Shown in pieces: positions 1,064 to 27,475 of a stretch of 64,000 nt of DNA. This stretch comes from an uncultured Clostridia bacterium (lineage in GTDB: Bacteria > Bacillota > Clostridia > TANB77 > CAG-508). Both the position numbers and the translations under genes were made by a program. Positions within the stretch are counted from its first letter, which is position 1; every line of letters starts with the position of its first letter. The notes under the pieces are model-generated. The model saw nothing but the letters and a program-made list of their open reading frames with translations. It searched no databases and had not been told where the DNA came from. Location of the stretch: NCBI GenBank assembly GCA_904384245.1, contig CAJFJM010000001.1, positions 21,252 to 85,251 on the forward strand, in the 5' to 3' direction.

Positions 1064-2638
1064 ATGGACAAATTAAAAAGAGTTTTTAAAAAAGAATATT
1101 TGCTTGTTCTATTTTTTGCTTTTGTAATTTTATCTTTTTTAATACTAGAACCAATAGAAGATTTAGATGAATTATGGAATTATAATACAGCAAGATGTAT
1201 AGCAGATGGTTTAATACCATATAAAGATATAAGTATGATAACAACACCACTTTTGCCAATGATAAATGCAGTATTTTTAAAAATATTAGGCAATGAAGTT
1301 TTGGTAATGAGGATTTTAGCAGGAATTCTAGGAGCTTTAATTTTATTTTTAACATTTAATATTTTAAAAAAACTTTTTAAAGAGACAAATATAAGTCTAA
1401 TTTGTACATTTTTATTATATTTATTATATCAAGATTTCTTTTGTATAGATTATAATTTTTTTGTTTTATTTTTAGTATTATGTATTTTAAATTTGGAAAT
1501 TAAATATACAAATAAAATATATAGTGGTAAATTTAAAGGAAGAAAAATATTAGTAAATTTAAATAAAAACCAAAAAACAAATTTAATAATTGGAATATTA
1601 GCAGGATTATGTATATGTACTAAGCAAAGTATAGGCGTATTAGTTGCATTTATTACAGCGATATATCCAATAGTATGGATAAGAAACAAAAAAGATATAA
1701 AGCTTGCAATTTCAAGTATTATAATTAGAGTTTTAGGAATTATTATACCTGGAGTTATATTTTTAATATATCTTATTGCAACAGGAGCATTAAATGATTT
1801 TATAGGTTATGCAATAAAAGGAATATCACATTTTGATAATAGTATATTATATAAAACACTATTTGAAAGTGAAAAATTACCAATTTCAATAATATCAAAA
1901 GCTTTACCACTAATGTTTATAATTTGTTTAGGTTTTAGCATTTTTAGTAAGAAAAATAAAAATGAATACAGAAATTTATTACTTTTAAATATGTACTCAA
2001 TCCCAATGCTTATATTGATGTATCCAATTTCTGATGAGATTCATTTTCTAATAGCGGTATATTTATTTTTAGTAACATTTTTATACTTGATTTTTGGAAT
2101 ATTGGCAAAATGGATATATAATAAAATAAATTTACGTAAAAAGAAAAAGATATATAAAATTTTAACACTTTTAATCTTTATATTTATATTTGCAGATGTT
2201 ACATCTAAAGCAGTTACTAATTATTATGATTATTATAAACTAGATAAAAATAATGTAATTAAGCATTATAATGGAATATCTATACATGATTATTTAGTGC
2301 AAAGAATAAATGGAATTGATGAATTTATAACAAACCAAAATTCTAATGGAAAAAGAGTATATATTTTAGATGCAGAAGCGGCTGTATACAATATTCCTTT
2401 AAATATATATAATAAAGATTATGACATGTTTTTAAAAGGAAACATAGGAGAAAATGGACAAGAAGGACTTATAGGAAAAGTAAAAAAACAATCAGAAGAC
2501 AAAAATAATTTATTTTTAGTACGTCAAATTCAATATTCACAAAACTGGCAAACACCATTAAAAGTTCTTGAATATGTGAGAAATAATTTAGAAAAAATAG
2601 ATGAAGTAGAATTTTATGATGTATATGTGGGCAAATGA
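1064..2638 (+). CDS. polytopic membrane protein, GT-C-fold glycosyltransferase-like (ArnT/PMT-like)
   Basis: 524 aa, many predicted TM helices, acidic DE-type motif near N-terminus (EDLDELWNY); AAAGGA RBS before ATG 1064; paralog-like to next gene. Confidence 0.45.
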   Translation: MDKLKRVFKKEYLLVLFFAFVILSFLILEPIEDLDELWNYNTARCIADGLIPYKDISMITTPLLPMINAVFLKILGNEVLVMRILAGILGALILFLTFNILKKLFKETNISLICTFLLYLLYQDFFCIDYNFFVLFLVLCILNLEIKYTNKIYSGKFKGRKILVNLNKNQKTNLIIGILAGLCICTKQSIGVLVAFITAIYPIVWIRNKKDIKLAISSIIIRVLGIIIPGVIFLIYLIATGALNDFIGYAIKGISHFDNSILYKTLFESEKLPISIISKALPLMFIICLGFSIFSKKNKNEYRNLLLLNMYSIPMLILMYPISDEIHFLIAVYLFLVTFLYLIFGILAKWIYNKINLRKKKKIYKILTLLIFIFIFADVTSKAVTNYYDYYKLDKNNVIKHYNGISIHDYLVQRINGIDEFITNQNSNGKRVYILDAEAAVYNIPLNIYNKDYDMFLKGNIGENGQEGLIGKVKKQSEDKNNLFLVRQIQYSQNWQTPLKVLEYVRNNLEKIDEVEFYDVYVGK

Positions 2639-2672
2639 TATAAAATATAAAGATTGAAGGAATAAAATTTAA

Positions 2673-4283
2673 ATGGAAGATTTAATAAAAAAAGACAATG
2701 AAAATTTTTTAAAAAAATATAAAATAAAAATTATCATAGGAATAATAGTATTATTTGGTGTACTTATTAGAACTATAGGAATAGGAAGTATTCCAAATGC
2801 TCTAAATGTAGATGAGGCATCAGCTGGTTTTGAATCATATTCTATATTGAATTATGGAATAGACAGAAATGGGAATTTTCTACCAGTGTTTTTAGTAGCA
2901 TGGGGAAGTGGACAAAATGCACTATATACATATTTAATAATGCCATTTATTGCAATGTTTGGTTTAACAACATTTGCAATAAGGCTTCCAATGGCAATTA
3001 TAGGTGGAATAAGTTTAATAGTATTTTATTTATTATTAAAAAGAATGATAAACCAAAAGACAGCAATTATAGGGTTAATATTTTTAGCAATATGTCCATG
3101 GCATATTATGAAATCAAGATGGGGATTAGAATCAAATTTATTTCCAGACTTAATGCTACTTTCTGTTTTTTTAATAATAAAAGGGATTCAAGATAAAAAA
3201 AGAATTTGTCAAATTTTAGGCTATATAGTAGCAGGCTTAACAGCATATGCATATGGTACATCATATTTCTTTTTGCCATTATTTTTTATACCTGTATTAT
3301 TTATTATGTTAAAGAAAAAAGAACTAACATTAAAAGAGTTAATTATAAATTTGGCTGTAATTGGAATAGTAGCATTACCAATAATTATTTTTGTAATAAT
3401 AAATACATTTAATTTGCCAGAAATAGAATTACCTTTTTTGACCATACCAAGAATGGAAGTAAATAGATATGAAGAAATAACTTCAATATTTTCAAGTGAC
3501 TTTCTAGAAAAAAGTTTAGATAATTTTGCTGGTGGATTACAAATACTAATATATCAAGTAGATGGACTTCCATGGAATTCTTTAGAAGATATAGGAACAA
3601 TATATACTTTTTCTACTATATTTACAATATTGGGGATAATTGTTGCAATAAAGAATAGAAAAGATATAAAATATGGTTATATTATGGGAATATGGCTTAT
3701 TGTATCTATATTATTACTTTTTGTTTGTGAACCAAATATAAATAGATTAAATATAATATTTTTCCCAATTATTTTTTATACAGTTGTTGGAATAGATGAA
3801 ATAGCAAAACAAGGGAAGGTTTTTGCTGTGTTGTTGGCTATTGTATATATATTAAGTTTTGGACTATTTGTAAATTCTTATTTTAGTGAAAATGCAAATG
3901 ATTATATGACATTTGAAAGTAATCTGGAAGAACCAATAGAATATTTAAATACTTTACAGGATAAAGAGATTTATATAACAAATTCTATAAAAGAACCATA
4001 TATTTATGTGTTGTTTTATACAAAATATGATACAAGAGATTTTGTTAATACTGTGGAATATTATAATGAGGATGGAGCTTTTAGACAGGTAAAAAGTTTT
4101 GGGAATTATAATTTTGTGAGTATAAATATGTTGGATAATAGGCAGGAAAATGTGTATTTGCTTAGAGAGAATGAATATGAAGATGTGAAAAATAATCCTG
4201 AAAAATATGGCATAGATAGTTTGGATGGAGAATTTGAAGTTAAGGAGTTTTTGGGATATGTTGTTTTAGAAGGGAAGGTTTAA
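2673..4283 (+). CDS. GT-C family (GT39/GT83-like, ArnT/PMT-type) membrane glycosyltransferase
   Basis: 536 aa; N-terminal TM then DEASAGF motif characteristic of ArnT/PMT-type GT-C enzymes, about 12 TM segments and a C-terminal soluble domain. Confidence 0.6.
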   Translation: MEDLIKKDNENFLKKYKIKIIIGIIVLFGVLIRTIGIGSIPNALNVDEASAGFESYSILNYGIDRNGNFLPVFLVAWGSGQNALYTYLIMPFIAMFGLTTFAIRLPMAIIGGISLIVFYLLLKRMINQKTAIIGLIFLAICPWHIMKSRWGLESNLFPDLMLLSVFLIIKGIQDKKRICQILGYIVAGLTAYAYGTSYFFLPLFFIPVLFIMLKKKELTLKELIINLAVIGIVALPIIIFVIINTFNLPEIELPFLTIPRMEVNRYEEITSIFSSDFLEKSLDNFAGGLQILIYQVDGLPWNSLEDIGTIYTFSTIFTILGIIVAIKNRKDIKYGYIMGIWLIVSILLLFVCEPNINRLNIIFFPIIFYTVVGIDEIAKQGKVFAVLLAIVYILSFGLFVNSYFSENANDYMTFESNLEEPIEYLNTLQDKEIYITNSIKEPYIYVLFYTKYDTRDFVNTVEYYNEDGAFRQVKSFGNYNFVSINMLDNRQENVYLLRENEYEDVKNNPEKYGIDSLDGEFEVKEFLGYVVLEGKV

Positions 4284-4841: not shown

Positions 4842-5089
4842 ATTTTATTTCCAGTGAAGAGACATGTTAATTGTTTGGGGTAGATGAAGATGCTGTAATA
4901 AAAATGAAGAAAGATCCTGCAAATTTGTGTAATAACACATCTAAAATCTCTCCAACAATTTCTTTAGTTAAAGTATTAAATGAAATGCAAATTAAAGATG
5001 TTAATAAAATGTCAGTTAAAGAATTTAATGCATCAAATGAGTTCTTCAGATACGAAAAAATCGAAAAGATTATATATAGGAGACCAACT

Positions 5090-5767
5090 ATGAAAAAAAT
5101 ATTAGTAGTAGAAGATGATGTTGATATTCATTTACTAATAAAAGATATTCTAGAAAAAGAAAGATACAAAGTAATTAGTGCATACTCTGGAACAGAGGCA
5201 ATATTATTGATTGAAAAAAATGATATAGACTTAATTTTGTTAGATTTAATGTTACCAGGATTGCTAGGAGAAGAAATAATAAAAAAAGTAAAAAATATCC
5301 CAATTATAGTCATAAGTGCAAAAATATCTTTAGAAGACAAAGTAAATACATTATTAAGTGGAGCAAATGATTATATAGTAAAACCATTTGAACCAAAAGA
5401 ATTATTAGCAAGGATAAAAGTCCAACTAAGAATGAAAAATAATAAAGAAAATAAAGAGCTAAAATATAAAGACATGTTTTTAGACAAAATGACTCAAACA
5501 TTATATATAAAAAATAATAAAATAAATTTAACAAAAACAGAATATACAATATTAAAACAATTATTATTAAACCCTAAACAAATTATAACCAAAACAAAGC
5601 TAATTCAAATATTAAATGAAAATAACAAAGTAAGTACTAAAACCCAATTATATGACGAAAATTCTTTAAAAGTACATATAAGTAATATAAGAAAAAAGAT
5701 AAGAAATGTTACAACTAATGAATATATAGAATCTGTATGGGGAATAGGATTCAAATTATATGATTAA
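5090..5767 (+). CDS. OmpR-family two-component response regulator
   Basis: Receiver domain (MKKILVVEDD…D at LLDLMLPG…K) and C-terminal winged-helix (…VWGIGFKLYD). The ORF track starts at 4871, but an AGGAG RBS precedes the ATG at 5090, which matches receiver-domain N-termini. Confidence 0.85.
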   Translation: MKKILVVEDDVDIHLLIKDILEKERYKVISAYSGTEAILLIEKNDIDLILLDLMLPGLLGEEIIKKVKNIPIIVISAKISLEDKVNTLLSGANDYIVKPFEPKELLARIKVQLRMKNNKENKELKYKDMFLDKMTQTLYIKNNKINLTKTEYTILKQLLLNPKQIITKTKLIQILNENNKVSTKTQLYDENSLKVHISNIRKKIRNVTTNEYIESVWGIGFKLYD

Positions 5768-5839
5768 AAATAATTTAAATATCTCTATAACTGATTAAAG
5801 AACTAATTAAACATTATTTAAATTATGCAAACAACAATC

Positions 5840-5881
5840 TTAACTATTTCTTAACTACTTTTTAACTATTTTCTTAACTAT
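5840..5881. promoter_or_regulatory. four direct repeats TTAACTA(T/C) with 11-12 bp phasing upstream of ABC operon promoter (-10 TATGAT about 5885)
   Basis: Copies at 5840, 5851, 5863, 5874; helical phasing is typical of OmpR/PhoB-type regulator binding sites; followed by -10-like TATGATAAAAT and RBS GAGGAGG before ATG 5920. Confidence 0.4.
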
Positions 5882-5919
5882 CTTATGATAAAATTTTTTC
5901 ATAAGAGAGGAGGAAAAAA

Positions 5920-6834
5920 ATGGAATATGTTTTAGAAACAAATAATATTGAAAAAAGATATGGCCATTTTAAAGCACTAACTAATCTTAATATGCATATC
6001 CCAAAGGGAGCTATATATGGTTTAATAGGAAAAAATGGAGCAGGAAAAACCACTTTGATAAGATTGGTTTGCGGTTTACAAAAAGCAACATCAGGAGAAT
6101 ATACGATTTTTGGTATCTCAAATAATAGTAAAAAAATTATCAATGTACGAAAAAGAATAGGAGCAATTATTGAAACACCTTCTATTTGTCTAGATATGAC
6201 GGCAGAGGATAATTTAAAAGAACAGTATAAAATTATAGGTTTACCATCATTTGATAATTTACAAGAAATATTAAAATTAGTAGGTCTAGAAAATACAGGG
6301 AAAAAAACTGTCAAACATTTTTCTTTAGGTATGAAACAAAGATTAGGAATAGCTGTTGCATTAGTTGGAAATCCAGATTTGCTAATTTTAGATGAACCTA
6401 TAAATGGATTAGATCCAGAAGGAATAATAGAAATTAGAGAATTGATTTTAAAATTAAATATAGAAAAAAGAATTACATTTTTAATATCAAGTCACTATTT
6501 AGATGAATTATCTAAAATAGCAACATGTTTTGGTATTATAGATAAAGGAAAAATTATTAAAGAAATAACTAAAGAAGAATTAGAGCAAAATTTTAAGAAA
6601 AGAACACAAATAAATGTAAGTAATATAAAAGAATGTGTTAAATATTTAGAAGAGAAAAATTTAAATTATAAAGTTATTACTAACAACATAATTGATATAT
6701 ATGAAAAAATAAATGTATCAGAACTTGTAGTTGCACTTTCCAAAAGAGATTGTATGGTAAATAATTTTCAGGAAAAAGAAGAATCATTAGAAAATTATTA
6801 TTTAAATTTAATTGGAGGTGCAAGTGATGATTAA
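5920..6834 (+). CDS. ABC transporter ATP-binding protein (lantibiotic/bacitracin-immunity type)
   Basis: Walker A GKNGAGKTT, signature LSLGMKQRL, Walker B LLILDEP; 304 aa. Confidence 0.9.
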   Translation: MEYVLETNNIEKRYGHFKALTNLNMHIPKGAIYGLIGKNGAGKTTLIRLVCGLQKATSGEYTIFGISNNSKKIINVRKRIGAIIETPSICLDMTAEDNLKEQYKIIGLPSFDNLQEILKLVGLENTGKKTVKHFSLGMKQRLGIAVALVGNPDLLILDEPINGLDPEGIIEIRELILKLNIEKRITFLISSHYLDELSKIATCFGIIDKGKIIKEITKEELEQNFKKRTQINVSNIKECVKYLEEKNLNYKVITNNIIDIYEKINVSELVVALSKRDCMVNNFQEKEESLENYYLNLIGGASDD

Positions 6835-7640
6835 ATTATTAAAAGCAGGTTTTTTTAGGTTAAAAAAAGATGTAGTATTTTGGCTATTTATTTTTTTATC
6901 AATTGGAATAGCAGGATATACATTATTTAGGCTAACATCAAGTGAAGATATAATATTAGATAAAGTTATAAATGATTATATTATGTATATAGGACTTTTT
7001 ATTGCAATATTTGTAAGTATATTTGTAGGAAAAGAATATTCACAAGGAATTATAAGAAATAAAATAATTGTACGGTCATACAAGAATTTCTATTTATTTA
7101 TCTAATTTAATTATTAGTATAATTGTATCAATATTATGTGAGGCGATTTATGTTATATTGCTTTTGGCAGTAGGAATTCCTTTAGTTGGTGGATTACAAA
7201 TGCAAATATCTCAATTTTTAATGATTATATTAAATACTATTTTAATAATTATATCATTTTGCTCTATATATAATTTTATATCAATGATATGTACAGAAAT
7301 AACTATTTCAACAACAATATGTACACTTTTATTTATAGCAATGTTTATTATGCAAGCAAGTTTTGGCTATATTGCATCTAGTACAAAATATATAACAAAT
7401 ACATCTATAGATGAAAATGGAAATAAAGTTGTAACTCAAGAACCAGACCCTAATTATCCAGGAGACCAAAAAGTTAGACAAGCAAAAATAATTTATTTTT
7501 CTATACCTCAAGGACAGGCTATGGAAATAAAGAATGGAAGCTCAGAAGATTTATATCAAATGCCAATATATTCTATTATTTTAATAATTATTATAAATGT
7601 TTTAGGATTATTTATTTTTTCTAAAAAGGAATTAAAATAG
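6827..7640 (+). pseudogene. ABC-2 family permease, interrupted by a frameshift near 7068-7076
   Basis: ORFs 6812..7105 (2 TM) and 7068..7640 (4 TM plus loop) lie in different frames and together make one 6-TM ABC-2 permease; the junction reads …IRNKIIV | (Y)GHTRISIYLS…; GGAGGTG RBS before ATG 6827. Confidence 0.6.
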
Positions 7641-8656: not shown

Positions 8657-9259
8657 ATGTTAAAAAATAAATTAGAAATAGATAATCCAATAGAACTTGC
8701 AAAAGAAGAAGAAAGAATAACAAAATTAAAAGCATTAGAATTATTTGAAACAGGAAAATTAAATTTATTTGAAGTAGGAACATTTAATGGATTAGCACAA
8801 ATTCATAGATATCTATTTGAAGAAATATATGATTTTGCAGGGAAAATTAGAACAGAAAATATTTCAAAAGGTAATTTTAGATTTGCATCAGTTATGTATT
8901 TAGAAGAAGCATTAGAGAAAATAGACAAAATGCCTCAATCTAATTTTGATGAAATAATAGAAAAATATGTAGAAATGAATATTGCACATCCATTTAGAGA
9001 AGAAAATGGAAGAAGTACAAGAATATGGTTAGATATGATTTTAAAAAAAGAAATTAATAGAGTAGTAGATTGGAGTAAAGTAAGCAAAGAGGATTATTTA
9101 CTTGCAATGGAAAGAAGTCCAATAAAAAATACAGAAATAAAAATTTTGTTAAAAGAAGCATTAACAGATAAAATAAATGATAGAGAAGTTTATGTGAAAG
9201 GTATAGATGCAAGTTATAATTATGAAGGATATAATGTATATAAAATAGAAAACTTATAA
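8657..9259 (+). CDS. Fic/DOC family protein with non-canonical Fic motif
   Basis: Motif [12 protein letters not shown] fits HxFx(D/E)GNGRxxR except for E in place of the first G; AGGAG RBS before ATG 8657. Confidence 0.65.
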
Positions 9260-9306
9260 TATTTAGATATACAAACTCAAGAAATTCGGAAATGGAGGAA
9301 TAACAA

Positions 9307-12045
9307 TTGGATAAATTAGTATTAGTTGATGGGAATAGTATAGCAAATCGTGCATTTTATGGAATTATGGGAAGCAAAATGTTAACAACAAAAGATGGAA
9401 AATACACAAATGCAGTATATGGATTTTTAGCAATATTATTTAAAATATTAGAAGATGTAAAACCACAATATATAGCTGTAGCATTTGATTTAAAAGCACC
9501 AACAGCAAGACATAAAATGTATGAAGGATATAAAGCAAACAGAAAAGGCATGCCAGAAGAACTTGCAGAGCAAATGCCAATAATTAAACAAATATTAAAA
9601 GCAATGAATATAGATATAATAGAAAAAGAAGGATATGAGGCAGATGATGTTTTAGGAACTTTATCTAGATTCGGAGAAAAGCAAGGTTTAGAAGTGCATA
9701 TACTTTCAGGAGATAGAGATACTTTTCAACTAGCAACAGATAATGTAAAAATTCATATACCAAGAACAAAACAAGGAAAAACAGAAACAGAAATATATGA
9801 CAGAAACAAAGTAAAAGAAGTATATGGAATAGAGCCAAAACAGTTAATAGAAGTAAAAGGTCTTCAAGGAGATACATCAGACAATATACCAGGGGTACCA
9901 GGAATAGGAGAAAAAACAGCACTTTCTTTAATTCAAAAATATGGAACAATAGAAAATTTATATAATTTATTAGAAAAAAATGAAACAGATTTAAAAGGAA
10001 AACAAAAAGAAAAAATAGAACAAAACAAAGACTTAGCAGAACTTTCACATTTTCTAGGAACAATAAATCTAGAAGTACCAATAGAAGACACTTTAGAAGA
10101 TTTAAAATTAGAAGAATGGAATAAAGATGAAGTTTTAAAAATATTTAAAGAATTAAATTTTAAAAGATATATAGAAAGATTTAATTTAGAAAATCAGTCA
10201 AAAGAACAATTACAAAATGGAGAAATATCAGAAAACGAAGATAATAAATTACAAAATTTATTTAATATTGTGGATATTTCAATAGAAAATATTTTAGAGA
10301 TAATAAAAAATCAAAAACAAATGATATTTTATATACAAACAGCAGAGGATAATATAGAAGAAAAAATAATAAAGAAAAAAATTACATCAATGGCTATATA
10401 TAATAAGGAAAAAAACGAAGTATATAATATTTTTTTCAAGGAAGAAAAAGATGCAAAAATACTAAAAGAAGTTTTAGAAGATGAAAATATAAAAAAGAAA
10501 AGTCATCATTTAAGTGAGACATATATTTTATTAAAACAAATAGATATAGAAATAAGAGGAATAGAATATGATGCAAAAATTGCAGGATATATTTTAAATC
10601 CAACAGATAATAAATTAAAATTAGATGATTTAATAGAACAATATTTAGGTTTAAATATTCAAGACTATACAGGAAAAGAGCAACAAGAACAAATAACACT
10701 ATTTGAAGAAAATAATAAAGACGAAAATAAAGAAAATGATATAAAGAAAAAACAAATTTCATTTTATGCATATGCAATTTCAAAATTAGAAGAAATGATG
10801 ATAGAAAAACTAAAAGAAATAAACGCATTAGATTTATTTTATAATATAGATATACCAACAATAACAGTTTTATCTGATATGCAATGGAATGGAATGTATG
10901 CAAATATTGACGAATTAAATAAATTTGGAGAAGAATTAAAATTAAAAATAGATGAAAAAATGAAAAATATTCACAAATTAGCAGGAGAAGAGTTTAATGT
11001 TAATTCTACAAAACAACTAGGAGAAATACTTTTTGAAAAGATGAAATTACCAGTTATAAAAAAGACAAAAAGTGGATATTCAACAGATGTAGATGTATTA
11101 GAAAAATTAAGAGGAGAAGACCCAATAATAGAAGAAATTTTAGACTATAGACAACTTGCAAAATTAAATTCAACATATATAGAAGGATTAAGACCATATA
11201 TAAATCCAAAAACACACAGAATACACTCATTTTTCCACCAAACAATCACAGCAACAGGAAGAATAAGTTCAACAGAACCAAATTTACAAAACATACCAAC
11301 AAGATTTGAATTAGGAAAAAGAATAAGAAAAATATTTGAACCAGAAAAAGGAAATGTATATATAGATGCAGATTATTCACAAATAGAACTAAGAGTGCTT
11401 GCACATATATCAGGAGACAAACATATGATACAAGCATTTGAGAACAATGAAGATATTCATAAACAAGCAGCATCAAAAGTATTTAAAACACCAATAGACC
11501 AAGTAACAAAAGAGCAAAGAAGTGATGCAAAAGCAGTAAACTTTGGAATAGTATATGGAATAAGTGATTTTGGTTTAGGAGAACAATTAGGAATATCAAG
11601 AAAAATAGCTAAAAAATATATAGATGAATATTTAACAGAATATTCAGGAATAAAAGAATTTATGGAAAACATAACAGAAGAAGCAAAAGAAAAAGGATAT
11701 GTAGAAACATTATTCCACAGAAGAAGATATATTCCAGAACTAAAATCAAAAAATTATATGGTAAGGCAATTTGGAAGCAGAGCAGCAATGAACACACCAA
11801 TTCAAGGAACAGCAGCAGACATTATGAAAATAGCAATGATAAATGTATATAATGAATTAAAGAAAAGAAATTTAAAATCAAAAATTGTATTACAAGTACA
11901 TGATGAAATGATGATAGAAGTACCAGAAAATGAAATAGAAGAAGTTAAAAATATTCTTCAAGAATGTATGCAAAATGCAGTAAAACTAAAAGTACCACTA
12001 ATAGCAGAAGTATCAATAGCTAATAACTGGTATGATTGTAAATAA
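9307..12045 (+). CDS. polA: DNA polymerase I
   Basis: 912 aa; 5'-3' exonuclease N-terminus (LVLVDGNSIANRAFYG), polymerase motifs A (DYSQIELR), B (RSDAKAVNFGIVYG) and C (QVHDE); TTG start after GGAGG. Confidence 0.95.
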   Translation: MDKLVLVDGNSIANRAFYGIMGSKMLTTKDGKYTNAVYGFLAILFKILEDVKPQYIAVAFDLKAPTARHKMYEGYKANRKGMPEELAEQMPIIKQILKAMNIDIIEKEGYEADDVLGTLSRFGEKQGLEVHILSGDRDTFQLATDNVKIHIPRTKQGKTETEIYDRNKVKEVYGIEPKQLIEVKGLQGDTSDNIPGVPGIGEKTALSLIQKYGTIENLYNLLEKNETDLKGKQKEKIEQNKDLAELSHFLGTINLEVPIEDTLEDLKLEEWNKDEVLKIFKELNFKRYIERFNLENQSKEQLQNGEISENEDNKLQNLFNIVDISIENILEIIKNQKQMIFYIQTAEDNIEEKIIKKKITSMAIYNKEKNEVYNIFFKEEKDAKILKEVLEDENIKKKSHHLSETYILLKQIDIEIRGIEYDAKIAGYILNPTDNKLKLDDLIEQYLGLNIQDYTGKEQQEQITLFEENNKDENKENDIKKKQISFYAYAISKLEEMMIEKLKEINALDLFYNIDIPTITVLSDMQWNGMYANIDELNKFGEELKLKIDEKMKNIHKLAGEEFNVNSTKQLGEILFEKMKLPVIKKTKSGYSTDVDVLEKLRGEDPIIEEILDYRQLAKLNSTYIEGLRPYINPKTHRIHSFFHQTITATGRISSTEPNLQNIPTRFELGKRIRKIFEPEKGNVYIDADYSQIELRVLAHISGDKHMIQAFENNEDIHKQAASKVFKTPIDQVTKEQRSDAKAVNFGIVYGISDFGLGEQLGISRKIAKKYIDEYLTEYSGIKEFMENITEEAKEKGYVETLFHRRRYIPELKSKNYMVRQFGSRAAMNTPIQGTAADIMKIAMINVYNELKKRNLKSKIVLQVHDEMMIEVPENEIEEVKNILQECMQNAVKLKVPLIAEVSIANNWYDCK

Positions 12046-12087
12046 ATGTTAGTTTTGTTTTTAAAATTTGAAAAGGAGAAAAATATT

Positions 12088-12675
12088 TTGAAAAAAGTAA
12101 AAAACAAGAAAAAACTAATTTTAACAGTTACAGTGTTAATAATTTTATTTGTAATGATTATTCTATTTGGAGTATTTAAATTGCATACAAGAATAATGGA
12201 GATAATATATCCTAGGGAGTATGATAATTTTGTAGTGCTTTATGCACAAGAATTTCAAGTAGATGAAAATTTAATATATGCTATTATAAAAGCAGAAAGT
12301 AATTTTAATCCAGAAGCGGTTTCTGGAAAATCAGCAAAAGGACTAATGCAATTGGTTGATGATACAGCTTTAGATATTGCTAAACAATTAGGGATAGATA
12401 TGGAAGAAGAAGAAATTATACAGAAATTAAATGATGTAGATTTTAATATTAGGCTTGGAACAAAGTATATATCTATGTTAATTGAAAAATATGAAAATAT
12501 ATCTTTAGCATTAACAGCATATAATGCGGGAATAGGGACTGTAGATACATGGATTGAAAAAGGAACAATTCAAGAGGATGGTTCAGATGTGGAAAATATT
12601 CCATATAAAGAAACAAATCAATATGTTAGAAAAATTTTGAGAGATTATAAAATATATCAAAATTTGTATGCCTAA
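12088..12675 (+). CDS. membrane-anchored lytic transglycosylase (SLT domain)
   Basis: SLT motif ESNFNPEAVSGKSAKGLMQL, AYNAG; N-terminal TM; GGAG RBS before in-frame TTG 12088 (ORF track starts at ATG 12046). Confidence 0.7.
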   Translation: MKKVKNKKKLILTVTVLIILFVMIILFGVFKLHTRIMEIIYPREYDNFVVLYAQEFQVDENLIYAIIKAESNFNPEAVSGKSAKGLMQLVDDTALDIAKQLGIDMEEEEIIQKLNDVDFNIRLGTKYISMLIEKYENISLALTAYNAGIGTVDTWIEKGTIQEDGSDVENIPYKETNQYVRKILRDYKIYQNLYA

Positions 12676-12828
12676 AATACGAATGAAAAGCGAATGAAAT
12701 ATGAATGAATTTGCCTAAAATACCAAATAAAATACGAATAAAATAAGGACTGGACAAATTAAAAAAAATGCAATAAAATATATAATGTAGTTTAGAAAGA
12801 ATAGGAGAATAAAAAATGCGGAGAACAA

Positions 12829-14049
12829 TTGATTTTTGCTGTAATTGCATTTGGATTATTCATATACATGTTTTATGAAATGATAAGAAAAAATGATACA
12901 AGTTATGTGGTAATTCTTATTATTCAGGCATTAGGAATAGCATGCAATTTTATAGAAGTTTTGTTTGATATAAAAGCAAATGCTTTTGTAGTTATTTTAA
13001 AATATATTTTAGCAATACTTATACCGGGGGCAATTATAATATTAACTAAAAAGAATATACCTTTAATGGAGGTAGAAAATGTAGCATTAGCAAATTTTTG
13101 GCTTATGTTAGGTAATAGAAAGATGGCTAAACAATGTTTAATAAATTTAGTTACAAAATATCCTGAAAATTATCAAGGGCATAAAATGTTAGCTGTAATT
13201 TATGAAAAAGAAGGTGGAATGAGAAAAGCAATTGACGAATATGTACAAGCAATTGATAGTAATAAAAAAGATTATGATTCATATTATAAGGTTGCAGAAC
13301 TTTTAACACAATTAGATAAAAAAGATGAAGCAGCTCAGATGTTATTTAATTTATTACAAAAAAAACCAGAATATTATCAGGCAACAATTTTACTTGGTGA
13401 TATTTTAATAGAAAAGGAGCTTTATAAAGAGGCTGCAAATGTTTATCAAGATGCTTTAAGATTTAACCCAGGAAGTTTTGATTTAAATTATAATTTAGGA
13501 ATAGTATATACAATGCTTAATGATTTTCAAAGTGCAAAAATATGTTATGAAAAAGCGGCAGAATTAAATGCAATGTCTTATGTTTCTAAATATTCTTTGG
13601 CAGAGATTGCACTTATTTATAAGGATTTAGAAGAAGCAGAAAAATATTTTATGGAAGTGTTGCAGGATGATGCTTTATCAGCAGATGGATATTATGAATT
13701 GGCAAAAATTGAACTTATAAAAGGGAATAAAGATATGGCTATAAAGTATGTGAATACAGCTATAGATGCAGATTCTAAAAGAATAGTGGCAAAAGTAAAA
13801 AAAGATCCAATTTTTATACCAATTATAGCTAAAATTGCAATTCCTTTTAATTTGGAGGAAAAAGAAGGGGCTAAAAAATTGGCGGAAAAAGAGGTAAGGG
13901 TTAAAGAGCATTTGGAGGAAATGTTTGAGATAACTAGACATTTGAGTTATAGTGATATTGAGCTTTTGAATTATAATAAGGAGAGGGATTTTGATAAAGT
14001 TCATGGTGTGGAGGAAGAGTATAGAAATTTTGATGAGAGACAAAAGTAG
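12829..14049 (+). CDS. TPR-repeat protein with N-terminal transmembrane segments
   Basis: 406 aa; 2-3 N-terminal TM helices then multiple 34-aa TPR-like repeats (…AIDEYVQAI…, …AANVYQDALRFNP…); start codon uncertain. Confidence 0.65.
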   Translation: MIFAVIAFGLFIYMFYEMIRKNDTSYVVILIIQALGIACNFIEVLFDIKANAFVVILKYILAILIPGAIIILTKKNIPLMEVENVALANFWLMLGNRKMAKQCLINLVTKYPENYQGHKMLAVIYEKEGGMRKAIDEYVQAIDSNKKDYDSYYKVAELLTQLDKKDEAAQMLFNLLQKKPEYYQATILLGDILIEKELYKEAANVYQDALRFNPGSFDLNYNLGIVYTMLNDFQSAKICYEKAAELNAMSYVSKYSLAEIALIYKDLEEAEKYFMEVLQDDALSADGYYELAKIELIKGNKDMAIKYVNTAIDADSKRIVAKVKKDPIFIPIIAKIAIPFNLEEKEGAKKLAEKEVRVKEHLEEMFEITRHLSYSDIELLNYNKERDFDKVHGVEEEYRNFDERQK

Positions 14050-14172
14050 GTTTTTGGACCATTAGTGGAGGCTAGTGGTCTATTTTTTTATGAGTCTATT
14101 TTCGAAGTACTAATAATTTTTTATATTGTTTTGAGTTTGTTTGCAAAGGTTACCAATATTTATTGTGAGTCC

Positions 14173-14349
14173 GTTTCCAAAGGTTACTAATAATTTTTTT
14201 ATATTTAAAAACACTCCATAGCAGGGTCGTTTGAAAACCTAATTGGTTGCTCACGCATGTGGGTCTAGGTACGGTTTTCAAGCTGACGCGGGTCTTAGGG
14301 AACTGTCGGTGTTTTAAATATAAAAAAATTATTAGTAACCTTTGGAAAC
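14173..14349. repeat. MITE-like element: near-perfect 42-bp inverted repeats flanking a 94-nt GC-rich core
   Basis: Left arm 14173-14214 (GTTTCCAAAGGTTACTAATAATTTTTTTATATTTAAAAACAC); right arm 14309-14349 is its reverse complement with one indel; core about 50% GC in a mid-20s% genome; partial arm-like copies at 14107-14133 and 14137-14170. Confidence 0.5.
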
Positions 14350-14670
14350 TACTGAGAGATTGTAAATAAAGTGATTTGAGTTTTATGTTATATTGTTTAT
14401 GTTATATTTTATTTTAGATGTTATATTATATTGTTTTTATTTTTTAGATAAATATATAGTGAGTATAAATGTTTATTGTTTTTGAATGACTTTAGTTTAA
14501 AATACTTTTTATTTATCATATCTTTAAATAAAATTATGGTGACTATAGTGATCTCTTTTATTAAAATATTTTTTAAAAATATAGTTGAGTGTTTTTAATT
14601 GTAGCATAATATATGTGGTCTTTTAATAATATTTATAGAAGTATAAAATTTGGAGGTGCTGTGTATTTAT

Positions 14671-15534
14671 ATGGAAAAGGTTTATGGAATTTTGGGTGGA
14701 GATAATAGAAATATAAAATTGGCAAAATTGCTTGCAAAAGAAAATAATATAGTATATACTTATGGCTTAGAAGAGGCAGAGGAATTGTTAGGGATAAGTA
14801 AAATATATAATTGTAATTCAGTTGAGGAATTGGCTTCTAGTAGTGGAATTATAGTTGGACCTATACCATTTTCAAAGGATGGTGTGAATGTTTTAATGCC
14901 TTATAGTAATCAAAAGATAACAATTAAAGAATGTGTAAAAAAGATTTGTAATAATAATAAACTTGTAGTAGGTCAGGTTTCAGATGATATTTATAATTTA
15001 GCTAAAGATAGTAACTTGGAAATTGTAGATATAATGAAGTGTGAAGAGTTAGTTATTTTAAATACGATAGCTACAGCTGAGGGGACAATTCAAGTTTTGA
15101 TGAAAAATACAGATACTATTTTGCAAGGGTTATCTGTTTTGATATTAGGTTTTGGAAAAGTTGCAAAGACTTTGGCATATAAATTGTATAATATGCAAAT
15201 GGATGTGACTTGTGCTGTTAGAAAAAGTACAGATTTAGCATGGATTAAGGCATATGGATATAAAGAAAAAAATATTCATGAATTATCTTCATATGTTGGA
15301 GATTATGATATTATTATAAATACTATTCCAGCTATTGTTGTTGGGAAAAAAGAAATAGAAAAAATAAATAATGAAACACTAGTAGTAGACTTAGCTTCTT
15401 ATCCGGGGGGGATAGATGTTGATGAAATAAAGAAAAAAGACATAAAATATGTATGGGCATTAGGTTTACCAGGAAAAGTAGCACCAGTGACTAGTGCAAA
15501 ATATATTAGGCAAACAATAGAATTATATTTGTAA
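14671..15534 (+). CDS. dpaA: dipicolinate synthase subunit A (SpoVFA/DpaA)
   Basis: N-terminal Rossmann-like GILGGDNRNIKLAKLL, overall DpaA-like; GGAGG RBS 14 nt before ATG 14671. Confidence 0.7.
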   Translation: MEKVYGILGGDNRNIKLAKLLAKENNIVYTYGLEEAEELLGISKIYNCNSVEELASSSGIIVGPIPFSKDGVNVLMPYSNQKITIKECVKKICNNNKLVVGQVSDDIYNLAKDSNLEIVDIMKCEELVILNTIATAEGTIQVLMKNTDTILQGLSVLILGFGKVAKTLAYKLYNMQMDVTCAVRKSTDLAWIKAYGYKEKNIHELSSYVGDYDIIINTIPAIVVGKKEIEKINNETLVVDLASYPGGIDVDEIKKKDIKYVWALGLPGKVAPVTSAKYIRQTIELYL

Positions 15535-15625
15535 TATTATATATGTAAAAAATATAAATATAAAAATTATAATTTGAATAACTATTTGTGTTTTCATAGA
15601 AAAAAGGAAGGGATGAATAAAAAAA

Positions 15626-16416
15626 TGAATGAAGTTTTACAAGCACTAATTTTAGGAGTAGTTCAAGGACTAACAGAATTGTTACCAATATCAAGTTCTG
15701 CACATTTAAATTTAATACCTTGGATATTTAATTGGAATGTTCCAGAGAGTTTTGATGTTGCTTTACATTTTGGGACATTACTTGCAATAGCACTATTTTT
15801 CTTTAAAGATTGGATTTCTTTAATAAAAGGTGGGTATAAACAAGTAGTTAAAAAGGAAAAGTCATTTGAAGGTAAAATGTTTTGGTATATAGTAATAGCA
15901 ACAATACCAGGAGGAATAATAGGATTTCTATTAGATCATTTTGTAGGGGAATCTTTAGGAAAAATGCCATTACTTATAGCCATAGCACTAATTGTTATGG
16001 GAATTATTTTATATGTTGTAGATAAAAAAGCACCAAATAAAACAAAGTATAAAGATATGACTTTTAAACAAACATTTATTATAGGTGTTTCTCAAGCTTT
16101 AGCATTTATACCAGGAGTTTCACGTTCTGGTATAACAATGACAACAGGAAGATTGATGGGTGTTGATAGAGCATCAACTGCTAAATATTCTTTTATGTTA
16201 TCAGCACCAATTGTTTTAGGGGCAACACTTTATAAGTTTAAAGATTTTGTTTTTGGTATGCCTTTTGTAGTAGGAGTTTTATCTAGCTTTTTAGTTGGAT
16301 TACTTGTAATTAAATTTTTATTACAATATTTGCAAAAGGGAAGTTTTAAGGTATTTGCAATTTATAGAATAATTATAGGATTAGTTGTAATTGCAATTTA
16401 TTTTTCTAGAATTTAG
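15626..16416 (+). CDS. uppP: undecaprenyl-diphosphate phosphatase UppP/BacA
   Basis: GLTELLPISSSAHL motif, 8 TM; AGGAAGG RBS before ATG 15626. Confidence 0.9.
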
Positions 16417-16474
16417 AATAAAAATTTTTTCTTAGTGATATTTTTATTAAAAATAAAATTTTCACATATTTAAA

Positions 16475-16517
16475 AGATGAATTGCCAAAAATAATAATGC
16501 GAATTCATCTTTTTTTG
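16475..16517 (+). terminator. rho-independent terminator after uppP
   Basis: AGATGAATT…AATTCATCT hairpin followed by T7. Confidence 0.6.
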
Positions 16518-16617
16518 AATTTATAATGAAAAATTTAGAAATAAATGCTATAATACTTTTAAAGTATTATTATTTAATTTTGCAGATAATGTCTGCAAAA
16601 TTAGAAAGAAGGTAGAA

Positions 16618-17666
16618 ATGGAAAATGAAATAGATATAAGTAAATATAAACAAATTTTTGAGAATATAAAACAAGAGGTACTAAAATCACAATATAAAGC
16701 AATGCAAGCAGTAAATACAGAAATGATATATATGTATTGGAATATTGGAAAAATCATATCAGAAAACATTGAATGGGGAAATAAATTCGTTGATAATCTT
16801 TCTATTGATTTGAAAAATGAATTTCCAAATATTCAAGGTTTTTCAGTTAGAAATTTAAGAAATATGAGAAAGTTTTATGAAGAATATCCTAGTATTGAAA
16901 TTTTGCAGACATTGTCTGCAAAATTGACTTGGTCGCATAATATTTTGCTAATAAATAAAATTAAGGATATGGAAATTAGAAAATGGTATATGAAAGAAAC
17001 AATCAAAAATGGTTGGTCACATGATGTTTTAGCAGACCAAATAAAATATAAATTATATGAAAGACAAGCTATAGCAGAGAAAGTAACAAATTTTGAAAAT
17101 ACATTGCCAGATGCTCAAAGTGATTTAGCTATGCAAACAATGAAAGATCCATATATATTTGATTTTATTGTTTTAAAAGGACAAGTGAAAGAAAAACAAA
17201 TAGAAGATGCTATGATTGAAAAAATAAAAAATGTGCTTATTGAGTTAGGAAATGGATTTGCATTTGTAGGAAATCAGTATAAGATAACAGTAAGTGATAC
17301 AGATTATTTTATAGATTATTCTATCATTTAGAATTAAGATGTTATGTTGTAGTGGAATTAAAAGCGAGAAAATTTAAACCTACTGATGCAGGACAATTGA
17401 ATTTCTATTTATCAGCGATAGATGATATGTTAAGAAAAGATGGAGATAATCCAACAATTGGGATATTACTATGTAAAGAAAAAGACAAACTAACAGCAGA
17501 ATATGCTTTAAAAGATATAAATAAACCTGTTGGCGTAAGCGAATATAAACTTTTACAAGATATACCAGAATATTTGCAATCACAATTACCAAAAGCAGAA
17601 GAAATTGAATTGCATATTAAAGATATTGAAGAAATAGAAAAACAGCAAGATAATGAAGAAGAATAA
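16618..17666 (+). pseudogene. DUF1016/YhcG-family PDDEXK nuclease gene disrupted by a frameshift near 17316
   Basis: ORF 16618..17331 carries the family N-terminal region (…LSAKLTWSHNILLI…); ORF 17352..17666 in another frame carries the C-terminal VELKARKFKPTDAGQLNFYLSAIDD motif; the alternative frame reads …LFYHLELRCYVVVELK… across the gap. Confidence 0.65.
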
Positions 17667-27147: not shown

Positions 27148-27475
27148 TAACTTCAAAGAAGAAGTTAAAAATAATAAGTTAATAATTTTCCCTGCATAGT
27201 ACGTGTAGACAGAATTTTTAGAACCAACACACATAGAAGAGGGGCCAATCTCGAAAATATGGCGTGCATGCTCACCGTTTGAATTGTGAGAAGCCCATGA
27301 GTATTTTGGTAGGCACCCACCTGTTTTTAGGAACAGGTCCTTAAAAATTCAAGACATCTTGCGGCTAAGGCGGGGGGTATTTTTAATAAAAAATTAAATT
27401 AAGTAAATTTTTAAGTGCACTGCTAAAAAGTTTGTATATGGAATAAATAAAATTCGTATACAAACTTTTTTTAAT
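27148..27475 (+). ncRNA. candidate structured RNA of about 330 nt (family not recognised)
   Basis: Possible sigma-A promoter (TTGTAA 27113-27118, 17 nt spacer, TAAAAT 27136-27141); GC-rich core 27181-27370 with several local stems; no convincing ORF; strong terminator AAGTTTGTATA…TATACAAACTT then T7 at 27430-27475; the downstream gene has its own promoter. Confidence 0.3.

Follow-up and report, generated by a model that had tools for sequence, protein, structure and literature searches.

A long inverted repeat with a G+C-rich interior lies in the spacer ahead of the sporulation gene dpaA of an uncultured bacterium (~25% GC). Such a structure could belong to the gene as a regulatory RNA leader, or it could be a piece of mobile DNA that has little to do with the gene. 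We analyzed the locus in the window (the whole 64,000-nucleotide stretch of DNA under study) and in other contigs of the species, which occur only in ENA metagenome assemblies.

Structure and setting of the inverted repeat

A repeat search of the window identified a perfect 38-nt inverted repeat with 100% complementarity (14173-14210 and 14312-14349, with 101 nt between), and this is the only pair of perfect inverted repeats longer than 30 nt in the 64 kb. In the sequence, the left arm has one unpaired A, beyond which pairing continues for another three or four bases (CAC/GTG) to a total of ~42 nt, which confirms the near-perfect terminal inverted repeats of the preliminary description. The G+C-rich core that it reported was also found, as the enclosed 101 nt are 51.5% GC in a window of 25.2% GC. 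The element folds far better than shuffled sequences both as RNA (-82.1 kcal/mol, z = -10.4) and as DNA (z = -10.2). Folded separately, the core is more stable than shuffles on the plus strand (z = -3.15) but not on the minus strand (z = -0.77). No T-run follows the element hairpin. The features of the spacer, in window coordinates, are listed here.

14055-14082, plus strand: intrinsic-terminator-like hairpin and T-run of the upstream TPR gene, placing the element outside the TPR transcript
14091-14126, plus strand: copy 0, an older solo left-arm remnant, retained even in strains without the element
14132-14163, plus strand: copy 1, a degenerate solo left-arm copy (TGAGTTTGTTTGCAAAGGTTACCAATATTTAT) abutting the element, 79% like the arm; haplotype B breaks at its first base, where the strain deletion also has its left limit
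14133-14437, unstranded: 305-nt segment absent in L035 and L037, with the 12-nt direct repeat TTATATTGTTTT at either limit (14121-14132 and 14426-14437)
14164-14353, plus strand: element proper, 190 nt, TGTGAGTCC...GGAAACTACT, the unit in common with locus 2 (91.7% identical in the alignment to L039-L042; nhmmer limits 14164-14353)
14173-14210, plus strand: left arm, perfect 38-nt inverted repeat, with an imperfect outer extension GAGTCC (14167-14172) and an inner extension AACAC to ~14215
14211-14311, plus strand: G+C-rich core (51% GC) with nested inverted repeats CGTTTGAAAACC / GGTTTTCAAGCTG and CTCAC / GTGGG; 7 differences from locus 2
14312-14349, plus strand: right arm, perfect 38-nt inverted repeat, with a terminal extension TACT to 14353
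14385-14443, unstranded: AT-rich tandem repeat (ATGTTATATTGTTT-like units), indel-variable among strains
14605-14613, plus strand: CATAATATA, sigmaK-like -10 matching CATA---TA, the predicted dpaA promoter, ~250 nt downstream of the element

The spacer is 621 nt long, and the gene that follows it has a Pfam DpaA_N match. The -10 consensus CATA---TA comes from sigmaK promoters of B. subtilis, and homology with the divergent haplotype in L036 resumes at 14602, next to the sigmaK-like -10. Because a terminator precedes the element and the probable dpaA promoter follows it, the element appears to lie between the two and outside any leader. The ~600-bp dpaA leader proposed earlier is therefore not supported: the spacer contains both the terminator-like site and the sigmaK-like -10, and two strain contigs (L035 and L037) have no element. 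The RNase III substrate of the preliminary description would require transcription to read through into the element, and this framing is likewise not supported.

The closest other DpaA among 5.8 billion proteins is 58-60% identical, and the nearest sampled relative (58%) retains the gene order PolA-SLT-TPR-DpaA-BacA. Its TPR-dpaA spacer is 191 nt long and lacks the element. The comparison of relatives suggested in the preliminary description thus returned a conserved gene order and an element whose position is not conserved. In the window species and in the 58% relative alike, the DpaA_N gene (14671-16416 in the window; 4001-5712 in L012) is followed by bacA (undecaprenyl-diphosphatase family), not by dpaB.

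Two left-arm copies sit upstream of the element, at 14091-14126 and 14132-14163, in agreement with the partial copies described before. Each is roughly 79-81% like the arm, and they are arranged in tandem with a period of ~34 nt.

A second copy at an unrelated locus

We searched for further copies with the translation of a 69-codon read-through frame that is open across the whole element on the minus strand (no start codon precedes 14281). With this query, phmmer against 1.84 billion representative proteins matched P0241, a spurious ORF (E = 4e-25). P0241 and its cluster mate P0243 are carried by four contigs (L039-L042) from four samples, which define locus 2. The similarity to the window covers exactly 14164 to 14353 and stops at both ends. 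The flanks of the two loci are no more alike than shuffled sequences (the score was reached by 632/1000 shuffles on the left and 1000/1000 on the right), and neither an extension of homology into the flanks nor a partial arm at locus 2 was significant. The sequence ends of the 190-nt unit are GAGTCCGTTTCCAAA...TTTGGAAAC(G/T)(G/A)ACTC. The imperfect outer bases beyond the 38-nt perfect repeat reach these common limits, as terminal inverted repeats of a MITE would, and the unit also has the size and coding content of one (190 nt, below the ~500 bp usual for MITEs, and no ORF with a family match).

At locus 2 the copy is flanked by two unknown genes, both on one strand. The gene downstream has a perfect TTGACA-17-TATAAT promoter, and the copy lies ahead of it. 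Both copies are thus intergenic, each is upstream of the next gene's own promoter, and their orientation relative to the flanking genes is the same. Locus 2 comes from samples that overlap with the samples of the 58% relative but not with those of the window species, so the host of locus 2 is probably another genus. With the loci probably in separate genera, a small gene could also have passed horizontally between their hosts.

The second locus bears directly on the idea of a purely local scar, in which the palindrome formed in place by template-switch inverted duplication of a copy 0-like sequence, captured foreign DNA and never moved. The tandem arm copies with their 34-nt period and a spacer prone to slippage and deletion would suit such an origin. 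However, the 190-nt unit, core included, is present at an unrelated locus with unrelated flanks, which independent local events cannot yield, and locus 2 is unlikely to be an assembly artefact as it is found in four independent assemblies. The second locus with its 190-nt unit therefore excludes the local scar, and we regard such an origin as scarcely credible.

Evidence of target-site duplication differs between the loci. At locus 2 the element is flanked by ...GGGTATTTTTTTGTG / TTGTGCTTTTTG..., and a 5-nt direct repeat, TTGTG, abuts both of its ends; with two loci only, this could be chance. No comparable duplication was seen at locus 1 in haplotypes A and C. The proposed check for target-site duplications thus gave a 5-nt candidate at one locus and none at the other. 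The tetranucleotide TGTG precedes AGTCC at both loci and may simply belong to the element.

Further copies were sought in several collections. No second copy was found in the same genome, as far as this was covered by the 64-kb window (one copy) and assembly ERZ1643246 (one matching contig, that of dpaA). The arm pattern had five matches in 185,579 species genomes, all in unrelated phyla, and the home species is not among these representatives. A metagenome scan returned five stretches, four being chance matches and the fifth the dpaA locus itself (L018). Among viral contigs, nine matched the arm pattern weakly and in part, and none matched three core patterns; phages and plasmids had no match with blastn in distant mode. 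A five-sequence nhmmer profile detected no further copies in 341 kb of collected sequence. Two loci, probably in different genera, are thus known in all, and the genome-wide search for arm copies proposed earlier had a mixed outcome: one extra copy at an unrelated locus in another gut-type bacterium, and a single copy in the window and in assembly ERZ1643246. The species-genome, metagenome, viral, phage and plasmid searches yielded no autonomous IS with matching ends; exact-match scans would miss diverged ones.

Mirrored changes in the arms and the question of an RNA

The arms at locus 2 are also perfect over 38 nt. They differ from the window arms in a block (AAGGTTACTAATAAT vs AAAGGGTAATAATAT) that is mirrored in the opposite arm. 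Nine aligned arm pairs differ between the loci, every one of them on both sides, and the covariation score of 0.177 (0.069 in shuffles) was reached by 0/500 shuffles. One inner-stem pair has changed as well, from C-G in the window through C.A (L041 and L033) to U-A (L039, L040 and L042), and the other core differences between the loci fall in predicted loops or the apical hairpin. The complementarity of the hairpin is actively kept, as is equally expected for a DNA palindrome and for an RNA. In DNA palindromes, template-switch correction of quasipalindromes can keep the arms complementary. The two indications of strand conflict: the fold favors the plus strand, whereas the C.A intermediate is a mismatch on the plus strand and a wobble (G.U) only on the minus strand.

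The main rival to a mobile DNA element is a small structured RNA gene or a mobile RNA-encoding cassette, with a three-way-junction core RNA and a long processing stem read from the plus strand and the DNA as its carrier only. We consider it unlikely. Such an RNA would account for a core of 51% GC in a 25% GC genome, for its better fold on the plus strand only, for the compensatory changes in the arms and one inner stem with the other substitutions in loops, and for the constant orientation to flanking genes. However, every compensatory change is equally expected for a DNA palindrome, and the C.A intermediate contradicts the strand that the fold suggests. The similarity between the loci ends at the hairpin base, leaving no conserved promoter or terminator on either side; there is no convincing promoter before the element and no T-run after the hairpin. 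The dispensability of the element in L035 and L037 also speaks against such an RNA.

Nor does the element belong to an Rfam family by our searches. The 801-nt region had no match in Rfam 15 at E <= 10, and the 131-nt core had only chance matches (mir-4766 and an HCV stem-loop) far below gathering scores. A 5S rRNA-like RNA, considered because CCAUAGC and UAGGGAACUG occur at opposite ends of the core, was rejected, as RF00001 was absent at E <= 10 and UAGGG is UCGGG at locus 2. Across the whole window, Rfam contained nothing relevant to the element; its matches were a 6S RNA (27186-27380, RF00013, 73.8 bits) and two tRNAs (tRNA-Met at 49379 and tRNA-Gln at 54337).

Strain variation and the origin of the element

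Same-species contigs gathered by protein look-ups have four arrangements of the spacer. In haplotype A (the window, L006-L010, L034 and L038) the element is identical. One of these contigs, L010, has a 39-nt deletion (window 14401-14442) within the AT-rich ATGTTATATTGTTT-like tandem repeat, a further sign of a slippage-prone spacer. Haplotype E (L035 and L037) lacks 14133-14437 and keeps copy 0. The missing segment exceeds the 190-nt unit by 115 nt. Repeats of 12 nt occur in 3% of random AT-rich window pairs and those of at least 11 nt in 7.6%; with an ordinary alignment score in addition, we rejected the bounding repeat TTATATTGTTTT as a target-site duplication. Because the deletion is larger than the unit and ends in a chance-level repeat, haplotype E is a microhomology deletion around the palindrome and not a precise excision. 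Haplotypes B and E have SNPs and a downstream insertion in common, and by parsimony haplotype E represents loss of the element. The two strains of haplotype E lack the element, which is thus dispensable and would not be required for dpaA expression.

The other two arrangements are rearranged next to the element. In haplotype B (L018/L032, L031 and L033, from three samples), the sequence left of 14133 is replaced by the left end of an IS91-like element, with its tyrosine-recombinase gene cut at codon 96 and a 2-nt microhomology at the join. The eight differences in the last 70 nt of L033, at the end of a contig of 2.9x coverage, were not relied on. Haplotype C (L036) is identical to the window up to 14354 and continues with 89 nt of unrelated sequence, within which there is a degenerate right-arm remnant. 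The decayed arm copies at this site (copy 0, copy 1 and the remnant in L036) are consistent with the nested insertion proposed in the preliminary description. The spacer is a rearrangement hot spot among strains.

Strain divergence around the locus is mosaic. Between the window (9240-16520) and L010 and L035-L037, blocks of 95-97% identity abut blocks of >99.6%, indicating that homologous recombination is frequent in the species; one of the block boundaries in L036 is right at the right end of the element. Farther downstream, two 27-nt palindromes (AATTTTGCAGAyAwTGTCTGCAAAATT, at 16576-16602 and 16899-16925) are located just upstream of and inside the start of a YhcG/DUF1016 gene, and in L031, L035 and L037 a 2.2-kb AAA-ATPase_like/PDDEXK_9 gene replaces window 16475-16760.

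The IS91-like elements of these organisms include a full copy in L030 (~4885-7262), where an upstream tyrosine-recombinase gene (Phage_int_SAM_4) is followed by Zn_Tnp_IS91 and Y2_Tnp, and where the element splits the hydrophobic N-terminus of a prepilin-like gene. Such an element is also present in the left parts of L018/L032, L031 and L033. Its recombinase has >200 homologues, almost all being fragments of 90-185 aa, pointing to a multi-copy element with many truncated copies or with assembly breaks in it. In L032 (~1530-3400; L018 is the same in reverse), the left (terIS-like) end of the IS91-like element is the exact insertion point of a group II intron (RVT_1 and GIIM, 5' GTGTG, domain V). 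The intron is present at this end in L018 and L031 and absent there in L033.

This neighbor suggests another route of mobility, in which the element is a single-stranded DNA hairpin mobilized by an HUH enzyme (candidate: the Y2 transposase that IS91-like elements encode, perhaps aided by their tyrosine recombinase) through a rolling-circle or 'peel-and-paste' mechanism, not as a cut-and-paste MITE. We give this only a slim chance. The element is one large nested hairpin, the type of substrate that HUH enzymes recognize, IS91-like Int and Y2 elements are common in these organisms, and haplotype B carries a truncated copy of one, fused at a distance of 30 nt from the element. That junction, however, with its microhomology inside the int gene, is like those of illegitimate rearrangement. 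The IS91 family also has hairpin-rich ends, no target-site duplication and a fixed flanking tetranucleotide that serves as the target (PMC13181058); locus 1 likewise has no duplication, and TGTG stands before AGTCC at both loci as such a target would, although it may be element sequence. By contrast, the two ends of IS91-family elements are not inverted repeats of each other (PMC13181058), and long terminal inverted repeats, present here, are absent from IS91- and IS200/IS605-family elements. IS91-family ends carry subterminal palindromes. The element has no similarity to either end of the full IS91-like copy in L030. The IS91-like right end was also tried as the source of the element and rejected, with alignment scores no better than those of shuffles.

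The arms could also be binding sites for a recombinase, with the element serving as an inverton upstream of dpaA or as the remnant att region of a lost integrative element. This we find very unlikely. In a gut-type Firmicute, a short segment between perfect inverted repeats and ahead of a gene invites the comparison, the direct and inverted arm copies recall arm-type sites, and haplotype B has a tyrosine-recombinase fragment next to the element, but that recombinase is truncated and belongs to the IS91-like element. No recombinase gene is adjacent in the window, where the neighbors are TPR, DpaA and BacA. The core has the same orientation in all assemblies examined (at locus 1, the window, L006-L010, L018, L031-L034, L036 and L038; at locus 2, L039-L042) and its G+C-rich sequence contains no promoter-like hexamers. 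A locus-specific switch is also hard to reconcile with a second occurrence of the unit at an unrelated locus.

An integron attC site was rejected for this element. Such sites occur in cassette arrays close to intI and fold into imperfect hairpins that have extrahelical bases and R''/L''-L'/R' core sites, with AAC...GTT at their ends. Here the arms are perfect, the ends are GTTTCC...GGAAAC and not ...AAC/GTT..., and neither an array nor intI is nearby.

A probable low-copy foldback element

With some reserve, we consider it probable that this is non-autonomous mobile DNA of the foldback (MITE-like) type, from a low-copy family not described before. It is most likely not a regulator of dpaA. The mobile reading rests on the same 190-nt unit with sharp, identical limits at two unrelated intergenic sites, on its absence from the syntenic spacer of the relative, on its dispensability among strains and on the decayed solo ends around it. 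The preliminary description's assignment to MITEs thus stands in part: the unit is discrete non-coding DNA with terminal inverted repeats in two unrelated contexts, while neither several copies per genome nor a consistent target-site duplication was found. Counting against a MITE, the core is conserved, G+C-rich and internally paired beyond what a transposase needs.

The unit has features in common with several known families. Like the Correia elements (CREE/NEMIS) of Neisseria, which are 100-155 bp, non-coding and intergenic, with ~26-bp terminal inverted repeats, it forms a long hairpin. Correia hairpins are cut by RNase III if co-transcribed (PMC10969869). Correia elements differ in occurring in Proteobacteria at hundreds per genome, with a duplicated TA target and IHF and promoter motifs, whereas the dpaA-spacer element is low-copy, has 38-bp perfect arms and a conserved G+C-rich core, lacks the TA duplication and is unrelated in sequence. 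RUP of Streptococcus pneumoniae and bcr1 of the Bacillus cereus group are small non-autonomous inverted-repeat elements of low-GC Gram-positives, intergenic and strain-variable, that can form stable hairpins; both families are multi-copy, and the parent IS of RUP is IS630-Spn1. The dpaA-spacer element is like them in size class, inverted repeats and strain-variable intergenic placement, but has no sequence similarity to them and no known parent.

A low copy number does not exclude the MITE class. Prokaryotic MITE families may have as few as one copy per genome, and MITEAba12 of Acinetobacter has 1-22 (PMC10969869). MITEAba12 differs in its defined 9-bp target-site duplications and in the identified IS family that supplies its transposase, neither of which was found for the dpaA-spacer element.

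Long inverted repeats and quasipalindromes are mutational hot spots and are subject to template-switch correction. This DNA behavior matches a long interrupted palindrome beside deletion and rearrangement breakpoints, and the correction could explain the perfect arms. It is not an element family, however, and leaves the same unit at two unrelated loci unaccounted for.

As a foldback element, the unit would consist of two ~45-bp terminal inverted repeats (38 bp perfect) around a conserved G+C-rich core of ~100 bp with nested palindromes. As it encodes nothing, it would have to be moved in trans by some enzyme. We infer that it transposed into an untranscribed AT-rich spacer between the TPR terminator and the dpaA promoter, where earlier copies of the family may have left decayed ends (copy 0, copy 1 and the right-end remnant in L036), suggesting that a foldback element entered this spacer more than once. 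The perfect arms may reflect a young copy, or intrastrand template switching on the hairpin (quasipalindrome correction) may have homogenized them by copying changes from arm to arm. The long palindrome would in turn destabilize the spacer and promote the strain deletion and the rearrangement breakpoints.

Two features stand out: the core, which is conserved and structured, and the changes in the arms, which are mirrored perfectly. A hairpin-shaped mobile unit with a functional core would address both, the core acting as a structured RNA (guide, ribozyme or regulator) or as a single-stranded DNA recognition module for an HUH/tyrosine-recombinase system such as the Int and Y2 IS91-like elements. 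The arms would then be regenerated in each round of copying from a snap-back intermediate, producing mirrored changes. We offer this as a long shot.

For the organism, the result removes the tempting reading of a long structured leader that controls dipicolinate synthase. A poorly sampled, very AT-rich group of spore-formers now has a defined 190-bp element family. The mirrored arm changes around a conserved core make the element a useful natural system in which to ask by what means foldback elements maintain identical arms and whether the core has any activity. It also marks a strain-level rearrangement hot spot by a sporulation gene, which is relevant to assembling and comparing these genomes.
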